IMG/VR virus record: IMGVR_UViG_2563366831_000005
From: a virus
Lineage: Duplodnaviria > Heunggongvirae > Uroviricota > Caudoviricetes
DNA length: 17,162 nucleotides
Direction: 5' to 3' (one strand)
Made by a program: the position numbers and the translations under genes. This document shows, in pieces, positions 1 to 6,096 of this stretch. The notes below the pieces were generated by a model. It was not told where the DNA came from. It searched no databases and saw only the letters and a list, made by a program, of their open reading frames with translations. How positions within the stretch are numbered: position 1 is the first letter of the stretch; each line of letters opens with the position of its first letter.

Positions 1-569
1 GTGCCGGACGGTCGACGGGCCCATAACGCCTGCTCCAGTGCATCCAGCACGAATGTCGTTTCCATGGACGATGAGACCCGCCACCCCACGATGTATCCGG
101 CAAACACATCAATGATGAACGCCACATAGACGAAGCCCCGCCATGTGCTGACGTAAGTAAAATCAGCCACCCACAGCTGGTCAGGTCGTTCTGCCACGAA
201 CTGACGGTTTACGCGGTCGCCTGCGGCAACGGCTTTCCGGCTGATGGTCGTACGGACCTTTTTACCCCGGAGAACACCGGCAAGTCCCATAACCGCCATG
301 AGACGTGCCACAGTGCATCTGGCCACTCTGATACCTTCCCGTAACAACTGACGCCAGACTTTACGCACACCGTATACCTTGTGATTTTCATCGTATACGC
401 GCTGTATCTCTTTCTTCAGCCAGTCATCGCGCTGCGCACGGGCACTGCGTTTATCCGGATGATGTCGCTGTTGCTGACAGTGGTAATACGTTGACGGGGC
501 AATATGCAGTTCGCTGCATAGCGGTCCGACCCCGTACTGCTCACGCAGCTTATCCAGCAGTGGCATCAT
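1..569 (-). CDS. IS3-family transposase OrfB (DDE integrase domain), 3' end beyond window
   Basis: Minus-strand translation from ATGATG at 569-564 reads [72 protein letters not shown]...[57 protein letters not shown] and stays open to position 1. It is absent from the ORF track only because it has no stop inside the window. Confidence 0.85.
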
Positions 570-892
570 TTTTTCCAGAGGCGGTCGAACTCCGCCTTCG
601 CAAAATAAGCGGAAGCCTGGCGAAGGATATCGTTACTGCGGCGCAGTTCACGATTTTCACGTTCCAGCTCTTTCAGACGCTGACGTTCAGCGGTGGTGAG
701 CCCTCCATCACCACCCCCGGTATCCCGCTCATGCTGGCGAACCCAGACACGCAGAGTCTCCGGCGTACAGCCAATCTTTGGAGCAATGGAACAAATTGTC
801 GCCCATTGTGAGTCATATTCGCTCTGACTTTCCAGAACCATACGGACTGCCCGTTGACGGACTTCGGGGGAAAAACGAGTATTTTTAGTCAT
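566..892 (-). CDS. IS3-family transposase OrfA (helix-turn-helix / leucine-zipper protein)
   Basis: 108 aa [60 protein letters not shown]...[34 protein letters not shown], typical OrfA. Its TGA stop overlaps the orfB ATG. Confidence 0.9.
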
Positions 893-946
893 CCTGTTTA
901 CCTCTTTCTCAGGAAGTTTAGTCTCCAGGATTCCCGGGGCGGTTCA

Positions 947-988
947 GAAATTAAAGCTAAGTTCGGACTGAAAGGAGCAAGTGTATGA
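947..988 (+). pseudogene. 3'-terminal remnant (13 codons) of the phage replication gene (P position in lambda), cut off by the IS
   Basis: The frame ending in TGA at 986-988 overlaps the ren ATG at 985-987 as ATGA, the P/ren junction architecture of lambda. The open frame (EIKAKFGLKGASV*) begins exactly at the IS terminus. Identity as P is inferred from position only. Confidence 0.4.
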
Positions 989-1275
989 AGGGCAAAGAGG
1001 CAATTATTCATTACCTGGGGACGCATAATAGCTTCTGTGCGCCGGACGTTGCCGCGCTAACAGGCGCAACAGTAACCAGCATAAATCAGGCCGCGGCTAA
1101 AATGGCACGGGCAGGTCTTCTGGTTATCGAAGGTAAGGTCTGGCGAACGGTGTATTACCGGTTTGCTACCAGGGAAGAACGGGAAGGAAAGATGAGCACG
1201 AACCTGATTTTTAAGGAGTGTCGCCAGAGTGCCGCGATGAAACGGGTATTGGCGGTATATGGAGTTAAAAGATGA
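985..1275 (+). CDS. ren: Ren (Rex-exclusion resistance protein), lambda-like
   Basis: 96 aa, MKGKEAIIHYLGTHNSFCAPDVAALTGATVTSINQAAAKMARAG...; matches lambda Ren in length and sequence as recalled. Sits directly upstream of the tR2-like terminator and ninB. Confidence 0.85.
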   Translation: MKGKEAIIHYLGTHNSFCAPDVAALTGATVTSINQAAAKMARAGLLVIEGKVWRTVYYRFATREEREGKMSTNLIFKECRQSAAMKRVLAVYGVKR

Positions 1276-1300
1276 CCATCTACATTACTGAGCTAATAAC

Positions 1301-1333
1301 AGGCCTGCTGGTAATCGCAGGCCTTTTTATTTG
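1301..1333 (+). terminator. Intrinsic terminator, tR2-like (between ren and ninB)
   Basis: AGGCCTGC (1301-1308), loop tggtaatc, GCAGGCCT (1317-1324), then TTTTTATTT. Same position as lambda tR2. Confidence 0.6.
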
Positions 1334-1348
1334 GGGGAGAGGGAAGTC

Positions 1349-1789
1349 ATGAAAAAACTAACCTTTGAAATTCGATCTCCAGCACATCAGCAAAACGCTA
1401 TTCACGCAGTACAGCAAATCCTTCCAGACCCAACCAAACCAATCGTAGTAACCATTCAGGAACGCAACCGCAGCTTAGACCAAAACAGGAAGCTATGGGC
1501 CTGCTTAGGTGACGTCTCTCGTCAGGTTGAATGGCATGGTCGCTGGCTGGATGCAGAAAGCTGGAAGTGTGTGTTTACCGCAGCATTAAAGCAGCAGGAT
1601 GTTGTTCCTAACCTTGCCGGGAATGGCTTTGTGGTAATAGGCCAGTCAACCAGCAGGATGCGTGTAGGCGAATTTGCGGAGCTATTAGAGCTTATACAGG
1701 CATTCGGTACAGAGCGTGGCGTTAAGTGGTCAGACGAAGCGAGACTGGCTCTGGAGTGGAAAGCGAGATGGGGAGATCGGGCTGCATGA
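1349..1789 (+). CDS. ninB: NinB (Orf-family recombination protein)
   Basis: 146 aa from ATG 1349 (MKKLTFEIRSPAHQQNAIHAVQQILPDPTKPIVVTIQERNRSLDQNRKLWACLGDVSRQVEWHGRWLD...), preceded by a GGGAGAGGGAAG ribosome-binding site. The track's start at 1331 is a TTG extension. Confidence 0.9.
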   Translation: MKKLTFEIRSPAHQQNAIHAVQQILPDPTKPIVVTIQERNRSLDQNRKLWACLGDVSRQVEWHGRWLDAESWKCVFTAALKQQDVVPNLAGNGFVVIGQSTSRMRVGEFAELLELIQAFGTERGVKWSDEARLALEWKARWGDRAA

Positions 1790-2313
1790 CTATCAAATCA
1801 AATACGCCAGCACACGACAAGGACTGCTGGCAAACGCCGCTTTGGCTTTTTGATGCACTGGATATTGAGTTTGGATTCTGGCTGGATTCGGCAGCGAGCG
1901 ACAAAAATGCTCTGTGTGCTCACTGGCTAACTGAGGCCGACGACGCGCTCAATTCTGAGTGGGTAAGCCACGGTGCAATCTGGAATAACCCACCGTACAG
2001 CAATATCAGGCCGTGGGTGGAAAAAGCTGCTGAGCAGTGCATACAACAGCGACAGACGGTAGTTATGCTTGTGCCAGAGGATATGTCAGTCGGATGGTTC
2101 AGCAAGGCTCTGGAGAGTGTCGACGAAGTTCGCATTATCACTGATGGACGGATTAATTTTATCGAACCATCGACAGGGCTGGAGAAGAAGGGAAACAGCA
2201 AAGGCTCCATGCTGCTGATTTGGCGACCGTTCATCAGTCCTCGACGGATGTTTACTACCGTATCCAAAGCGGCATTGATGGCGATCGGGCAGGGCGTCAG
2301 GAGGGCGGCATGA
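1786..2313 (+). CDS. Phage DNA N6-adenine methyltransferase (Dam-type, orphan)
   Basis: ATG 1786 overlaps the ninB stop (ATGA). The product [31 protein letters not shown]...[16 protein letters not shown]... carries the NPPY catalytic motif of N6-adenine methyltransferases. No restriction endonuclease partner is nearby. Confidence 0.8.
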
Positions 2314-2486
2314 GGCGACAGCGACGAAGTTTCACCGACATCATCTGCGAAAACTGCAAATACCTTCCAACGAAACGCTCCAGAAATAAACGCAAGCCAA
2401 TCCCAAAAGAATCTGACGTAAAAACCTTCAATTACACAGCTCACCTGTGGGATATCCGGTGGCTAAGATATCGTGCGAGGAAATGA
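2310..2486 (+). CDS. ninE: NinE
   Basis: 58 aa [58 protein letters not shown]; its ATG overlaps the methyltransferase stop. Matches lambda NinE as recalled. Confidence 0.8.
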
Positions 2487-2830
2487 CAATGGATTATTCA
2501 CAGTTAAGTGATTTTGAAATTAACAGAATGGTAGGAGACATAATTTTTAAAGGCCTTTGGGCAAGTAAACCGGAAACATCAGGGAATAACACCAACAAAT
2601 GGTATTACGGAAATGCTGATACAACTTTTGAGCCATTAAATCATTTGCCTGACTACTGCAATGATCCGAGCGCTTCATGGCCGATTATTGAGAAATACAG
2701 GATTTCTATCTTAGACCAGTTAACTGAATGGTGTGTGGATGCAAAAGGCGTAAGCCCAATATTTGATACCAGACCTCTCCGCGCCGCCATGATTGTCTTT
2801 CTCCTGATGCAGGAGGCCAATAATGCTTAG
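2483..2830 (+). CDS. NinX-like nin-region protein of unknown function (P22 NinX family position and size)
   Basis: 115 aa from ATG 2483, overlapping the ninE stop (ATGA): [89 protein letters not shown].... Visibly more AT-rich than the flanking genes. Family name is from memory and tentative. Confidence 0.55.
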
Positions 2831-3017
2831 CCCATCTCAATCCCTTCAATACCTGAAAGGAAGCATAGAGCGGGCTTCAATGTGCACAGAGTGGATTCTA
2901 TCTAGGTTTAGCGCATACAGAAGATTGCCGGTAAAGGGCATGCCAAGCAAGTCGATGCTGCATATGCAAAAGAATGCGCGCTGGAAGGTATGGCGAGAAC
3001 ACAGTTTATCTGGCTGA
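2823..3017 (+). pseudogene. Chimeric ORF: NinF-like N-terminus running out of frame into a ybcO-like remnant
   Basis: ATG 2823 lies 6 nt after AGGAGG (2811-2816). The first ~18 codons, [18 protein letters not shown], resemble the lambda NinF N-terminus. The rest (…ILSRFSAYRRLPVKGMPSKSMLHMQKNARWKVWREHSLSG) has no recognisable family and overlaps the ybcO-like frame out of phase. Confidence 0.35.
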
Positions 3018-3040
3018 AAGAGGGGGTTATTAAGGCGTGA
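2951..3040 (+). pseudogene. 3' remnant of a ybcO-like (DUF1364-type) nin gene, no start codon
   Basis: The frame ending TGA 3038-3040 overlaps the rusA GTG and reads ...[29 protein letters not shown], matching the C-terminus of DLP12 YbcO as recalled. Upstream the same frame hits TAG at 2909-2911 and the similarity is lost. Confidence 0.4.
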
Positions 3041-3399
3041 ATACCTACAATATCACATTACCCTGGCCGCCGAGCAATAATCGCTATTACCGCCATAATC
3101 GCGGGCGCACGCACATCAGCGCAGAGGGGCAGGCATACCGCGAAAACGTCGCCCGAATCATTAAAAACGCAATGCTGGATATCGGCCTGGCTATGCCTGT
3201 GAAAATCCGCATTGAGTGTCACATGCCGGATCGCCGTCGCCGTGACCTGGATAATCTACAAAAGGCCGCTTTTGACGCACTCACCAAAGCAGGTTTCTGG
3301 CTGGATGATGCTCAGGTCGTTGATTACCGCGTTGTGAAGATGCCGGTTGTCAAAGGTGGAAAGCTGGAACTGACCATCACTGAACAGGGAGATGAATGA
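3037..3399 (+). CDS. rusA: RusA Holliday-junction resolvase
   Basis: 120 aa, [103 protein letters not shown]...; GTG start. Essentially the E. coli prophage RusA sequence. Confidence 0.9.
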
Positions 3400-3536
3400 T
3401 GTTTGAGTTTTATATGGCAGAACTTCTTCGCCACCGCTGGATGCGCCTGCGCTTATATCGTTTCCCCGGTTCTGTTTTGACCGATTACCGAATACTGAAG
3501 AATTACGCCAAAACACTGACAGGAGCAGGAGTATGA
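3396..3536 (+). CDS. ylcG: YlcG-like small protein (46 aa)
   Basis: ATGATG at 3396 overlaps the rusA stop. The product [46 protein letters not shown] matches DLP12 YlcG as recalled. Below the ORF track's length cutoff. Confidence 0.55.
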
Positions 3537-3621: not shown

Positions 3622-4005
3622 ATGCGTGATATTCAGATGGTTCTTGAGCGTTGGGGAGCGTGGGCGGCTAATAATCATGAAGATGTGACCTGGTCGTCCA
3701 TTGCCGCCGGTTTTAAGGGATTAATTCCTTCAAAAGTAAAATCTCGCCCACAATGTTGTGACGATGACGCGATGATCATTTGCGGGTGCATGGCCCGTCT
3801 GAAAAAGAACAACAGCGATTTGCATGATTTATTAGTAGATTATTATGTAGTCGGTATGACATTCATGTCACTGGCAGGTAAGCATTGCTGCTCTGATGGT
3901 TATATCGGGAAAAGGTTACAGAAGGCTGAGGGCATAATTGAAGGGATGTTAATGGCATTAGATATCCGGTTAGAGATGGATATCGTTGTTAATAACTCTA
4001 ATTAA
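3622..4005 (+). CDS. Q: Late-gene antiterminator Q (DLP12 QuuD / phage-21-like type)
   Basis: 127 aa from ATG 3622 ([60 protein letters not shown]...), GGAG ribosome-binding site at 3611-3614. Cysteine cluster consistent with a zinc-binding Q. Sits immediately upstream of the late region. Confidence 0.8.
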
Positions 4006-4145
4006 TATGCCAATTATTTACTAAAAGTTATTAAAAATGGGGCGTTGAGACGCCCCCAAAAATAAAGGGTAATATATAACAGAAGGTTTATATAGTTAGA
4101 AGCAAGGTTGTGCTTCTAAAGGAAGTGGCTTGAGGGAGCCACTTA
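4006..4145 (+). promoter_or_regulatory. Candidate late promoter / Q-utilisation region (PR'-qut position)
   Basis: Position immediately downstream of Q, as in lambdoid phages. AT-rich with TTGAGA and TAATAT/TATATA hexamers, but I could not assign a convincing -35/-10 pair with canonical spacing. Confidence 0.25.
4039..4056 (-). terminator. Intrinsic terminator on the minus strand (distal terminator for the porin transcript)
   Basis: GGGGCGT (4039-4045), loop tgag, ACGCCCC (4050-4056). On the minus strand it is followed by ATTTTTAATAACTTTT; on the plus strand the tail is A-rich, so it is minus-specific. Confidence 0.4.
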
Positions 4146-4185
4146 TATGTTGGGGAGGCAACGCCTCCCGCAACATATCTTTTTC
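4146..4185 (+). terminator. Strong intrinsic terminator on the plus strand (tR'-like, downstream of Q)
   Basis: 15-bp interrupted stem: ATATGTTG-GGGAGGC, loop AAC, GCCTCCC-(g)-CAACATAT (4146-4179), followed by CTTTTT (4180-4185). Abuts the porin stop codon at 4195-4197. Confidence 0.55.
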
Positions 4186-4194
4186 GTAATCAGA

Positions 4195-5292
4195 TTAGAA
4201 CTGGTAAACCAGACCTACAGCAACGATGTCATCAGTGCTTACACCGAGTGCTTTAGTGAAGTCATTTTTGTCAAGCAGGTTGATTTTGTAATCAACGAAA
4301 GTAGACATATTTTTGTTGAAGTAATAGGTTGCACCTACATCAACATATTTGACTAAGTCCTGATCGCCCCATACTCCAAGATCCTTACCTTTAGATTGCA
4401 GGTAAGCAACGGACGGACGCAGACCGAAATCGAACTGATATTGTGCAACAGCTTCGAAGTTTTGGGCTTTATTAGCAACGAAGTGATCAGCAAATACAGT
4501 CATATTCTGGGTTTCAGAATAGGTAGTGGCCAGGTAAATGTTGTTAGCGTCATATTTCAGACCTGCGGCCCAAACTTCTGCATTTTTACCGGAAGCAAAT
4601 ACTTCAGGAAGAACTTTCCCTGCATTAACTTGAGTGTCGGTACGATCAGATTTCGCATAAGTTGCACCGATACCGAATCCTTCGTATTCATAGGTAGCAG
4701 AGAAACCGAAGCCATCACCGTTACCTTCAGTGTAGTTATCGAAATCGCTACGATCGTTTTTGCCTTGGTACTGAGCAGCAAAGTTCAGACCATCAACCAG
4801 ACCAAAGAAGTCGTTGTTACGATAGGTTGCAACACCAGTGGTGCGACCAGTCATGAACACATCTGTTTGGGTCCAGGTATCGCCACCGAATTCTGGCAGA
4901 ACGTCAGTCCACGCACCGATGTCGTATGCTACACCGTAGTTACGGCCGTAATCGATTGAGCCGTAGTCACCGAATTTCAGGCCTGCAAATGCAAGACGGG
5001 TTTTGTCTTTGGAGGAACCTTGAGATTCAGCGCGGTTGCCTTTGAATTCATATTCCCACTGACCGAAACCAGTCAGTTGATCGTTGATTTGGGTTTCACC
5101 TTTGAAGCCAAGACGGGCATAAGTAGTATCACCATCATCTGCATCATTAGAGGAGAAGTAGTGCTTGGCATTAACTTTCCCGTACAGATCCAGCTTGTTA
5201 CTGTCTTTATTATAAATTTCAGCTGCCTGAGCAGACATCGCCATCAGTACTGATGCAGCTACAGCAGAAATTGCCACTGTTAATTTTTTCAT
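4195..5292 (-). CDS. nmpC: Phage-encoded OmpC-family outer-membrane porin (NmpC/Lc type), intact
   Basis: 365 aa with a signal peptide ([23 protein letters not shown]|AEIYNK) and typical porin sequence through the C-terminal ...VGLVYQF. Uninterrupted by any IS. Confidence 0.9.
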
Positions 5293-5880
5293 CGTGAGCC
5301 CTTTTTTTTGAACTATTATTAAAAAATGATGTCACTGCGCGATAAATATTCATCTAATCAATGTGATTATTTCAAGATGTAAGTTTTAGTTTCTCATTTA
5401 ATTTGTGAAGTAGATCTCTATTTTTATCTGAACTTTTTCTATCGAAACCTATTTATGGCTCTTATTTGAACAAAAATAAACCTATTAGCTAATTTATATT
5501 AATGGTTGTTATTTATGGAGGTTCTATAATTCAGCAGTTTAATTTAAATCAACTAAAAATAACGTCTGAAATTATTTATTGGTTATTTGTTGAGGTTTTC
5601 TTATGTATTTGTGGTGGTGTTTTGAACACTCGGTAGCATTCTCATAAATATCATTCAGTGGTTTACGTACGTAAAAAATTGGTTATGCTGTTAAGAGTGG
5701 TTACTTCGTCACACAGCTTAAACCCGCCGTCGAGCTGGTTTTTCCATTTTTTGAGTCTCGATATTAGCTGATAACTCAATACCTGAGTTATTCACTGACT
5801 CCGAGTCTGTTACGTTTCTGCTTTTTTGCGATACGTTGTATTCCCTCAATTTACACCCGCTTTGTCTGCGAGGTGGGGTT

Positions 5881-6096
5881 ATGAAATCCATGGATAAGTT
5901 AACAACGGGTGTCGCCTATGGCACCTCAGCAGGTAGTGCCGGTTACTGGTTTTTACAGCTGCTCGATAAAGTCACGCCCTCACAGTGGGCAGCAATAGGT
6001 GTGCTGGGTAGCCTGGTATTTGGCCTGCTGACGTACCTGACAAACCTTTATTTCAAGATTAAAGAAGATAAGCGCAAGGCTGCGAGAGGTGAATAA
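5881..6096 (+). CDS. S: Class II holin, phage-21 S-type pinholin with dual-start motif
   Basis: 71 aa [71 protein letters not shown], with two transmembrane segments and Met1/Met4 dual starts. GGTGGGG ribosome-binding site upstream. The track's 5836 start is an unsupported extension. Confidence 0.85.

Follow-up and report, generated by a model that had tools for sequence, protein, structure and literature searches.

The porin gene of the window (the whole stretch analysed here, 17,162 nt) is best explained as part of a cassette that lies upstream of a displaced late promoter, PR', with late transcription starting beyond the porin. We put the probability of this explanation, taken as a whole, at ∼80%. 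The 1.65-kb cassette (∼4006-5660) would be inserted antisense exactly between quuD, the gene for the late antiterminator Q, and its target PR'. The 588-bp "empty" stretch at 5293-5880 would be two regulatory regions back to back, one on the porin side and one on the holin side, which would hold the promoter of the porin as well as the late promoter of the phage. Judged from its sequence, the window represents an E. coli lambdoid prophage of the DLP12 type, and the porin-to-holin layout is already known DLP12/lambdoid biology. The coordinates of the features are listed in Table 1.

Table 1. Features of the interval from quuD to essD, in window positions.
Feature	Position	Strand	Basis
quuD, late antiterminator Q, Q21/Q933W family	3622-4005	+	Pfam, structure matches, identity to Stx-phage Q
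Structured 3' UTR of the porin transcript (IpeX-type RNA)	4025-4194	-	fold, terminator scan, K-12 identity
Candidate terminator (long hairpin, then CTTTTT) for transcription running from Q towards the porin	4147-4186	+	putative
OmpC/NmpC-type general porin, intact, 365 aa	4195-5292	-	ORF, Pfam, structure matches
Porin 5' UTR and promoter zone PnmpC	5293-5442	-	conservation, published PnmpC
Candidate sigma-E-type promoter GAACTA-16-TCACT, "+1" A5342, directed towards essD	5310-5342	+	putative
PnmpC candidate elements	start site G5340; -10 GAATAT 5351-5346; -35 TTGAAA 5375-5370	-	putative
Candidate CRP-like site, centred at -71.5	5404-5419		consensus match
Most variable and most AT-rich part of the spacer, contains the 44-codon ORF	5443-5650		conservation
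Late promoter PR': -35 TTTACG 5662-5667, 16-nt spacer, -10 TATGCT 5684-5689	5662-5689	+	homology
14-bp palindrome TTTACGTACGTAAA, candidate Q-binding element, overlapping the PR' -35	5662-5675		sequence
PR' leader: start ∼A5696, invariant block AGAGTGGTTACTTCGTCACACAGCTTAAAC, hairpin and U-run 5720-5745	5696-5745	+	homology
Long imperfect stem-loop in the essD leader; inner stem ATAACTCA/TGAGTTAT (5771-5778/5784-5791)	5754-5808	+	fold
Hairpin predicted to sequester the essD Shine-Dalgarno GAGGTG (5870-5875), before the dual-start MKSM codons	5856-5877	+	predicted fold
essD, S21-type holin, first late (lysis) gene	5881-6096	+	annotation, Pfam

The porin cassette and its own promoter

The region is 100% identical to the E. 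coli 2014C-3097 record, whose annotation gave the gene order quuD, porin, essD; the K-12 DLP12 region is ∼90% identical and shares this order. The porin thus lies between Q and the holin on the opposite strand, as an earlier note on this DNA had described. QuuD belongs to the Q family: it matched the full-length profile of Pfam PF06530, the Q21/Q933W family of Q proteins (E = 8.5e-54), as well as the Q21 structures 6jnx/6p18 (E = 7.6e-8). The protein is 79-82% identical to Stx-phage Q and identical to K-12 QuuD.

The porin ORF is unbroken. Residues 29-365 cover positions 1-337 of the 337-position Pfam profile Porin_1 (E = 1e-156); the OmpC/OmpK36 structures matched at E ∼1e-135, with the OmpC structures aligning from residue 24. 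This is a general bacterial porin with a full-length 16-strand domain after the signal peptide. The IS5 element that splits the K-12 copy near window position 4253-4261 is absent here, and the porin is intact, as previously noted.

Downstream of the porin stop codon the transcript folds into four to five hairpins (-62.9 kcal/mol, z = -9.3), and the terminator scan called an intrinsic terminator with a stem at 4056-4039 followed by a T-run. It was reported previously that IpeX is a 167-nt DLP12 RNA made within the porin transcript (PMC12197685). The distance from the porin stop codon (4195) to the U-run after the 4056-4039 stem is ∼165 nt, and the K-12 quuD-IS5 interval matches window 4006-4261 with 98.8% identity. 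In its expected length (∼167 nt), its place after the porin stop and its terminator end, the segment reads as an IpeX-type 3' UTR RNA. Overall, the interval between Q and the porin contains one hairpin with a T-run and four more hairpins. Among the structures in the fold of 4006-4194(+) (z = -6.0) is the hairpin that may stop transcripts leaving Q; the terminator scan did not call it.

The 588-bp stretch adjoins the 5' side of the porin. Its GC content is 0.33, and 0.27 in 5293-5660, vs. 0.52 for the whole window. The ORF listing has no ORF of at least 60 codons within it, and the frames that touch it are 5219-5353(-) with 44 aa, 5502-5636(+) with 44 aa, 5718-5891(-) with 57 aa and a TTG-extended essD frame. 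The description of this stretch as AT-rich and ORF-poor is therefore accurate.

Its porin-side block, 5293-5442, was nearly invariant in 11 aligned loci. PnmpC has been located within -199 to -1 of the porin start codon, with a "G" start site and sites for CRP, OmpR, IHF and MprA (PMC11677980), which bears out the suggestion that the region holds the porin promoter. The exact hexamers and start site given in Table 1 are putative. A CRP consensus search returned one regional match, which is not above chance window-wide; we retained this site for its invariance and its fitting position at -71.5. The sequence upstream of the porin had no nucleotide similarity to chromosomal ompD-type porin loci of Citrobacter, Salmonella, Enterobacter and others, except in E. 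albertii. A sigma-70 promoter scan of 3900-6000 gave 0 matches, missing both PnmpC and PR' (8/12 or weaker); its threshold was too strict for these two promoters, and its silence is uninformative on function.

We propose that a sigma-70, CRP-dependent nmpC promoter (5293 to ∼5440) would fire leftwards in the lysogen to produce the porin and IpeX RNA. The cassette would be self-contained, with its own promoter, porin gene, structured IpeX-type 3' UTR and terminator. It has the features of a moron: it is inserted between Q and PR', which are adjacent in 23 relatives, and it has its own terminator and a published promoter. Its GC content is 0.44 and 0.27, vs. 0.52.

A probable late promoter beyond the porin

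The PR' of the window lines up base for base with the one annotated in phage 06-3462 (TTTACG-16-TATCAT) and does not vary in any DLP12-type locus. Stx phages of the 933W/Sakai type carry the mapped PR' and the first leader hairpin directly behind Q, and window 5662-5745 is the homologue of both; the match to this Stx stretch covers 5661-5743. The promoter at 5662-5689 is thus homologous to an experimentally mapped one. In the Sakai Stx phages the PR' start and the tR' 3' end were mapped 258 nt apart, with dRNA-seq and Term-seq support (PMC7547250); from this mapped start we placed the homologous start at ∼A5696. The genes downstream are the essD holin, the rrrD lysozyme and rzpD, followed by terminase genes. 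The earlier note had listed the real late promoter among several possible contents of the region, and the alignment with an annotated, dRNA-seq/Term-seq-supported Stx PR' agrees with that.

The canonical cassette, with PR' directly after the Q gene, was seen in 23 related loci. If the window followed it, PR' would lie in 4006-4194, the porin would be inside the late unit, and Q-modified polymerases would meet porin transcription head-on. However, the 17-nt PR' core occurs once in the window, at 5692, and is absent from 4006-4194. Similarity of the Q end to Stx phages breaks off with the quuD stop codon and sets in again at 5660. The interval 4006-4194 is a 3' UTR rich in hairpins that shares 98.8% identity with the K-12 IpeX region. 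We consider a PR' directly after Q very unlikely. The PR' homologue lies 1.65 kb past the Q stop codon (4005), displaced by the porin cassette, and transcription from it runs away from the porin. The head-on collision of late read-through with porin expression that had been anticipated is not expected, since with PR' past the porin the Q-dependent late transcript does not include the cassette. Porin transcription could be met only by early, pR-derived transcripts reading on past Q.

The block 5653-5745 was nearly invariant across the aligned loci and is kept in prophages and in the inducible phages ev099, ev207 and PhiR34_1; its transcribed core is also invariant across Q clades. Within the leader, the initial transcribed block (+1 to +30) is invariant, and inspection by eye gave no convincing -10-like pause hexamer. 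The type of palindrome over the -35 varies with the Q clade. Palindromes of the GCGGTCCGC type are another form, which would have their own cognate Q proteins.

A perfect-stem leader hairpin with a T-run was present in 96 of the loci compared (120 IMG/VR loci and the window), and the K-12 stem is also perfect. Chief among the exceptions is the window haplotype, in which G-to-T at 5736 causes a stem mismatch (minimum free energy -16 kcal/mol for the G form vs. -10.4 kcal/mol for the T form). Because the 258-nt Stx phage transcript passes the homologous first hairpin, this hairpin may terminate transcription inefficiently. In ETEC1717 a different, Stx-like late region follows the Q-porin-PR' module, and the mosaic breakpoint falls immediately past the hairpin.

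It was reported that the lysis operon is under the control of the DLP12 Q protein, RpoE and Hha, with a reporter fragment spanning "-121 to +650" relative to the Rueggeberg 2015 start site (PMC7918800). The forward primer of this reporter maps at 5220-5239, which together with the "-121" coordinate implies a "+1" at A5342, and the GAACTA-16-TCACT motif fits this position. The PR'-like element could then be a relic, with the lysis genes expressed mainly from a sigma-E-type start at ∼5342 or from other Q-independent spacer transcription; the cited RpoE control and the weakened leader hairpin of the window haplotype point in the same direction. Against this, 5653-5745 is invariant in prophages and inducible phages alike, the transcribed core is invariant across Q clades, and control by a Q-type antiterminator is cited in the same work (PMC7918800). 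A sigma-E-type start and PR' are also not mutually exclusive. We regard a relic PR' as unlikely.

A small RNA had also been suggested for the region. Homology between the beginning of the leader and the StxS-L 5' end would fit a trans-acting StxS-like RNA encoded here; but the functional StxS-S comprises the 3'-terminal 74 nt of the 258-nt RNA, and the window homology ends at ∼+50. This makes such a regulator quite improbable. We rejected the leader as a StxS homologue: it shares only the first ∼50 nt, and StxS-S, which binds Hfq and pairs with rpoS and stx1B, is absent. A short promoter-proximal RNA from PR' is plausible, and that part of the suggestion stands. Rfam searches returned no relevant family, either at the gathering threshold over the whole window or at E up to 10 on 3950-5950; the only matches were ALIL, elsewhere, and chance snoRNA-type ones. 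The E. coli Term-seq supplement of PMC7815308 contains no essD, nmpC or quuD entry.

In our model of a displaced PR', RNA polymerase would make a short leader RNA of ∼50 nt when Q is absent. With QuuD loaded as a Q21-type "nozzle," it would continue past the 135 nt of structured leader to transcribe essD-rrrD-rzpD and the morphogenesis genes. The homologies, the pattern of conservation, the decay of the 44-codon ORF and the positions are observed; the exact PR' start, Q binding at the palindrome, termination at the hairpin and the role of the spacer are presumptive.

The variable spacer and the essD leader

In 5443-5650, between the two conserved blocks, the fraction of invariant columns fell to 0.47-0.8 per 30-nt bin. 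This part would be a fast-evolving spacer that travels with the porin, and it probably holds sites for upstream regulators or nucleoid proteins.

The spacer also includes the 44-codon ORF 5502-5636(+), whose translation is exactly as quoted in the earlier note. Ten other loci share the open frame with the window, the annotation of phage ev099 lists it as a hypothetical protein, and the C-terminal half is hydrophobic, all of which would fit a gene for a small hydrophobic protein. However, the frame is intact in only 11 of the 51 related loci. In the other 40 the start is lost (ACG or AAG) and/or an in-frame stop occurs at codon 11-12. K-12 is among these disrupted loci, as are phages whose Q and holin are identical; disruption of this kind is what the earlier note had named as counting against the ORF. 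No Shine-Dalgarno sequence precedes 5502, as had been remarked before, and Pfam gave no match for the ORF. ATG ORFs of at least 44 codons numbered one in the 588 bases vs. a mean of 0.48 in mononucleotide shuffles, so that chance explains an ORF of this size. With neither frame nor start conserved and no Shine-Dalgarno, we rejected 5502-5636 as a small-protein gene; such a gene is extremely unlikely.

The inverted repeat pointed out earlier is present, with TTGAGT at 5751-5756 and ACTCAA at 5774-5779 separated by 17 nt. The region has 14 perfect 6-nt repeats with 3-30 nt spacers, vs. 5.7 ± 3.1 in shuffles, and with 14 of the same kind a single one is not remarkable. In most relatives the repeat is imperfect (ACCCAA), and it is perfect only in one haplotype. 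We rejected it as an operator or terminator: it is not conserved and has no U-run. The repeat overlaps the long stem-loop of the essD leader, and the fold of 5745-5880 gave z = -4.3 for the window haplotype vs. -1.1 for K-12. EssD matches the phage 21 holin S family (PF04971). The dual start of essD is presumably analogous to the start-site control of the lambda and 21 holins.

Cargo at the Q/PR' junction and comparison with known systems

We surveyed the gene content upstream of the PR' core in 120 IMG/VR loci that carry it. A QuuD-family Q gene was found upstream of the core wherever the contig reached it. Q and PR' were adjacent in 23 loci, a porin lay between them in 34 (+7), and other cargo in 43. 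In these relatives antisense cargo is a recurrent occupant of the junction, and it includes defence genes such as Kiwa. Besides the porin with IpeX, the cargo comprised Kiwa (KwaA/KwaB), the KAP-NTPase PDC-S20, an HNH PDC-M68A-like protein, pairs of NA37 and a membrane protein, and lipoproteins. We tentatively suggest that the Q/PR' junction could be a recurrent insertion hotspot for antisense, lysogen-expressed cargo that escapes Q-dependent transcription, and that the Q-clade-specific palindromes over the -35, next to a constant leader, could be cognate Q-binding elements; this is possible, at somewhat less than even odds. The junction may serve as a marker for finding cargo and defence genes. 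If the hotspot is undescribed, the invariant leader TAAGAGTGGTTAC... could be an anchor for mining defence genes in lambdoid prophages.

The displaced PR' would make the porin and IpeX a lysogen-expressed unit insulated from the late operon, which corrects the annotation logic. The lysis genes would be served by a separate Q-responsive promoter, just 185 nt in front of the holin. This bears on nmpC-positive strains, namely on porin expression, the down-regulation of OmpC/OmpF and DLP12 lysis-cassette phenotypes. In one common haplotype, the G5736T hairpin variant may increase the leakiness of the lysis cassette. Nothing here alters the accepted view of lambdoid regulation.

The closest system is DLP12 (qsr') of K-12, which shares the order quuD-nmpC-essD-rrrD-rzpD with identical QuuD and EssD proteins and a spacer ∼90% identical. 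It differs in the IS5 near the porin 3' end, where the window porin is intact, in the lack of 17 bp at ∼5818-5834, in G at 5736 and C at 5776, and in a destroyed 44-codon frame, which is intact in the window. The PR'-tR' cassette of Stx phages (933W, Sakai Sp5/Sp15), the source of StxS, has the Q family, -35/-10, start region and first hairpin in common with the window. In Stx phages, however, PR' abuts the Q stop codon, whereas here the 1.65-kb porin cassette intervenes. The sequence past the hairpin is unrelated; the window lacks StxS-S, tRNAs and stx, and only 135 nt separate its hairpin from the holin.

Like the morons lambda bor/lom and PA-2 lc, the porin cassette carries a promoter and a terminator of its own, is oriented independently of the flanking operon, has a lower GC content and is absent from otherwise homologous phages. 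Unlike morons inside a phage operon, it lies upstream of the late promoter, and its 3' UTR doubles as a regulatory RNA. In the Q21 system of phage 21 (QBE, sigma-dependent pause, nozzle), Q is likewise a PF06530 protein; QuuD matches the Q21 structures and the lysis genes of the window are S21/R21-like, but QuuD is only remotely similar to Q21 itself (E = 7.6e-8 over 80 residues). Q21 binds an element made of two directly repeated 8-bp subsites, whereas the candidate element in the window is a 14-bp palindrome.

A probable late promoter on the holin side of the porin

Over the 588 bases of 5293-5880 the window matches the E. coli 2014C-3097 chromosome at 100% identity, and 3168 of the 5426 complete genomes of E. 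coli have similar sequence. The annotated 2014C-3097 record gives the gene order ybcO-rusA-ylcG-quuD, porin (minus strand), essD-rrrD-rzpD, iss/bor (minus strand) and terminase genes. The K-12 DLP12 prophage has the layout of the window, but its porin gene is interrupted by IS5. Based on this identity and layout, we assign the window, as judged from sequence, to a lambdoid prophage of the DLP12 type whose nmpC-type porin gene is intact. An earlier note had described an uninterrupted porin gene with an AT-rich, ORF-poor upstream region, and the description is accurate: the minus-strand ORF at 4195-5292 is open (365 aa), has a full-length Porin_1 match and is close to OmpC/OmpK36 structures; the GC content is 0.27 in 5293-5660 and 0.33 in 5293-5880 vs. 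0.52 in the whole window; and 5293-5880 contains no ORF of 60 codons or more. Elsewhere in the window, the nin region is split by the IS66-family element ISEc23 (~266-2680), which carries a full-length Rfam ALIL pseudoknot match (495-611, minus strand, 120 bits, E=3e-31) antisense to the annotated tnpA.

A sensitive search of phage genomes matched 5661-5743 to hundreds of Stx phages, where the stretch is annotated as Q, promoter and terminator. In phage 06-3462 the matched stretch covers the annotated PR' (TTTACG-16-TATCAT), which begins 2 bases past the stop codon of Q, together with the first hairpin downstream of this promoter. In the Sakai Stx phages the PR' start (dRNA-seq) is located 258 nt upstream of the tR' 3' end (Term-seq) (PMC7547250). 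Counting back from the tR' U-run in a fetched Stx locus gave start A1536, which aligns with A5696 of the window. The −35, spacer, −10 and start of the window PR' (see table) were placed by this alignment with the annotated and mapped Stx PR', and the suggestion that 5293-5880 holds the real late promoter was right. QuuD, a full-length protein of PF06530 (the Q21/Q933W family) that also matches Q21 structures, is 79-82% identical to Stx-phage Q and is a Q of the kind matching PR'. The 17-nt leader core occurred only once in the window even with three mismatches permitted, and was absent from 4006-4194 at the same tolerance. At its 3' end the Q gene is homologous to Stx phages as far as the quuD stop codon, and homology restarts at ~5660. 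The block ~4006-5660 thus has the character of DNA inserted between Q and PR'.

Features of the quuD-porin-essD interval, in window coordinates
Feature	Position	Strand	Basis or remark
+ strand hairpin, then CTTTTT	4147-4179	+	fold; several further stems on the early read-through path
Terminator of porin-downstream RNA	4056-4039	-	terminator scan; RNA ~165 nt
Candidate porin start G5340	5340	-	tentative assignment
Candidate porin −10 GAATAT	5351-5346	-	tentative assignment
Candidate porin −35 TTGAAA	5375-5370	-	tentative assignment
CRP-like site TGTGAAGTAGATCTCT, invariant	5404-5419	.	CRP consensus search
PR' −35 TTTACG	5662-5667	+	alignment to Stx-phage PR'; then 16-nt spacer
PR' −10 TATGCT	5684-5689	+	alignment to Stx-phage PR'
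PR' start	~5696	+	homology to Stx-phage start A1536
GC-rich hairpin and U-run	5720-5745	+	downstream of invariant leader block
Long imperfect stem-loop	5754-5808	+	fold of 5746-5880
8-bp stem perfected by T5776	5771-5778 / 5784-5791	+	30 nt downstream of terminator-like hairpin
9-bp hairpin burying essD Shine-Dalgarno	5856-5877	+	fold; directly ahead of MKSM dual start (hairpin and start, 5856-5883); conserved in K-12

The earlier note had expected lytic read-through to collide head-on with porin expression. Such a collision is not expected: Q-modified late transcription should begin at ~5696, beyond the porin, and head away from it, so the porin gene would not be traversed. Only early-operon transcription running past Q could oppose the porin. 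In phage lambda, N-modified pR transcripts read beyond Q. The folded hairpin ahead of CTTTTT in the quuD-porin spacer could stop transcripts leaving Q.

The transcribed leader and the holin start

After the start, the leader carries the invariant block AGAGTGGTTACTTCG(C/T)CACACAGCTTAAAC, followed by the only terminator-like element that the terminator scan detected ahead of essD. We infer that this hairpin is the terminator overcome by Q. Its stem is perfect in 96 of the loci made up of the 120 IMG/VR matches listed plus the window. Loops vary among the matches listed and some stems are wholly different; perfect stems despite such differences are the pattern expected of a conserved terminator function. 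In Stx phages, however, most transcripts detected run on to +258, beyond the first hairpin (PMC7547250). We also looked for a sigma-dependent pause element in the PR' leader and identified none. The earlier guess of a small RNA holds only weakly, for a short PR' leader; a StxS-type small RNA was rejected, since the functional, sRNA-acting portion of StxS has no counterpart in the window.

The K-12 leader hairpin folds at −16 kcal/mol (z=−2.6). In the window, G5736T disrupts the stem (−10.4 kcal/mol, z=−0.6), and a weaker alternative stem CAGCUU/GAGCUG may form with the U-run still behind it. The T5736 allele is common (18 loci) and nearly always linked to T5776 (18 T/T vs. 27 G/C loci, with 1 recombinant). 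T5776 perfects the inverted repeat reported earlier, TTGAGT(5751-5756)-17-ACTCAA(5774-5779), which is indeed present, and also makes a better 8-bp stem, ATAACTCA/TGAGTTAT. The region contains 14 six-base inverted repeats vs. 5.7 ± 3.1 in shuffles, and a single repeat alone is not above chance. The 5736/5776 pairing may be mere linkage, or it may represent compensation within the leader structure. EssD belongs to the S21 holin family, and the hairpin-hidden Shine-Dalgarno before a dual start at essD is arranged as in the holin-antiholin control of S21 and lambda S.

Porin transcription and the AT-rich spacer

The 150 bp adjoining the porin start codon are almost invariant in 11 aligned loci. 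The published nmpC promoter is a sigma-70 promoter within −199 to −1, for which 5' RACE gave a 'G' as the start and two CRP sites are reported besides OmpR, IHF and MprA sites (PMC11677980). This bears out the suggestion of a porin promoter in 5293-5880. Given the candidate start G5340, the CRP-like site would be centered at −71.5, a classical class I position. The porin promoter should also yield the RNA downstream of the porin gene. The quuD-porin spacer 4006-4194 shows exceptionally strong structure on either strand (z=−6.0 for plus; z=−9.3 for minus, with 4-5 hairpins in the porin-downstream RNA), and 4006-4261 shares 98.8% identity with the interval between quuD and IS5 in K-12. IpeX is a 167-nt DLP12 RNA that is made within the porin transcript and lowers OmpC (PMC12197685, PMC3333887); by length and position, the RNA predicted 3' of the porin fits IpeX.

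A second promoter towards essD has been published. The lysis operon was reported to be under control of the phage Q antiterminator, RpoE and Hha, and the fragment cloned in that study spans '−121 to +650', numbered from the Rueggeberg et al., 2015 start site (PMC7918800). The forward primer maps to 5220-5239 (K-12 amplicon, 771 bp). Primer position and the −121 coordinate together imply, by indirect reconstruction, a '+1' at A5342 on the plus strand, behind a sigma-E-like GAACTA-16-TCACT (5310-5342). A5342, attributed to RpoE control, is 2 nt from the minus-strand candidate G5340; this closeness means either that two promoters are tightly packed back to back or that strand or coordinates were confused in the literature.

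Within the spacer, conservation is lowest and AT content highest at 5443-5650, where H-NS or IHF binding would be plausible. The 44-codon ORF (5502-5636) translates as quoted in the earlier note, but does not behave as a gene: it is confined in intact form to the lineage of the window (11 of 51 porin-type loci) and broken in K-12 and in phages whose Q and holin proteins are identical. Such disruption had been named in the earlier note as evidence against it. Other porin-type loci have ACG or AAG for its ATG and/or a stop at codon 11 or 12. Shuffles gave a mean of 0.48 ORFs of this size, and the observed ORF alone is not above chance. In phages ev099 (L016 610-744) and ev207 (L014 764-880), automated annotation labels the 44-codon ORF, and small minus-strand ORFs over the PR' leader, 'hypothetical proteins'. 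In light of the comparative data, the ev099 and ev207 calls are probably over-annotations.

The porin upstream region (5293-5622) recurs at ~80-86% identity, with no annotated porin, in E. coli ACN001 (L006 3001-3325) and 23CRST022 (L008 3001-3225). This copy adjoins ybcM/ybcL/emrE and is next to an IS200/TnpB element; the prophage remnant that contains it is at the fliE-yedK locus. Its presence at another chromosomal site suggests that the AT-rich DNA is part of the porin module. The porin upstream region showed no similarity to the upstream regions of chromosomal ompD-type porins of other genera.

The Q/PR' junction and known systems

An exact-pattern scan of IMG/VR with the leader core found at least 120 loci. 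Among the matches listed, a QuuD-family Q (45-100% identity) was upstream on the same strand wherever the contig extended far enough. Q was adjacent in at least 23 loci (stop codon 57-75 nt ahead of the core), a minus-strand porin intervened in at least 34 (plus 7 with Q off the contig), and other inserts of 0.6-2.5 kb in at least 43. In E. coli ETEC1717 (L007 1332-3449 onwards) the Q-porin-spacer-PR' unit is fused to a late region of another, Stx-phage-like kind (hypothetical gene, ISL3, DNA methyltransferase, tRNA-Ile/Arg), with the homology break exactly past the leader hairpin (window ~5744). The constant upstream Q and this breakpoint argue that PR' and its leader travel as a unit that follows the type of Q rather than the lysis genes.

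Non-porin inserts at the junction (window equivalent 4006-5660) were mostly minus-strand genes among the matches listed. They included Kiwa KwaB (E=2e-150) with a membrane partner, a PDC-S20 KAP-type NTPase (E=1e-177), an HNH PDC-M68A-like protein, NA37 proteins with membrane partners, a lipoprotein, an alpha/beta hydrolase and several unknowns. The junction resembles a hotspot for cargo and defense genes; a brief, shallow literature search found no description of it as such, which does not establish that it is new.

Among the matches listed, a palindrome overlapping the PR' −35 (window 5662-5675) differs between Q clades, whereas the transcribed leader does not vary. TTTACG(TA/AT)CGTAAA was present in 46 of the 49 loci whose Q has 78% identity or more to QuuD; GCGGTCCGC, GCGTACGC, TGGAATTCCA and other forms accompanied Q at 45-53% identity. 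The window has TTTACGTACGTAAA, Stx phages have TTTACGATCGTAAA, and TGTTATAACA occurs with distant Q proteins. The palindrome is a candidate cognate Q-binding element.

DLP12, PnmpC, IpeX, Q control of essD and the Stx PR' are all published. The closest relatives of the locus are K-12 DLP12, the PR'-tR' cassette of Stx phages and the Q21 system. In the textbook cassette the gene for Q is followed by PR', and the window differs solely by the 1.65-kb cassette in between.
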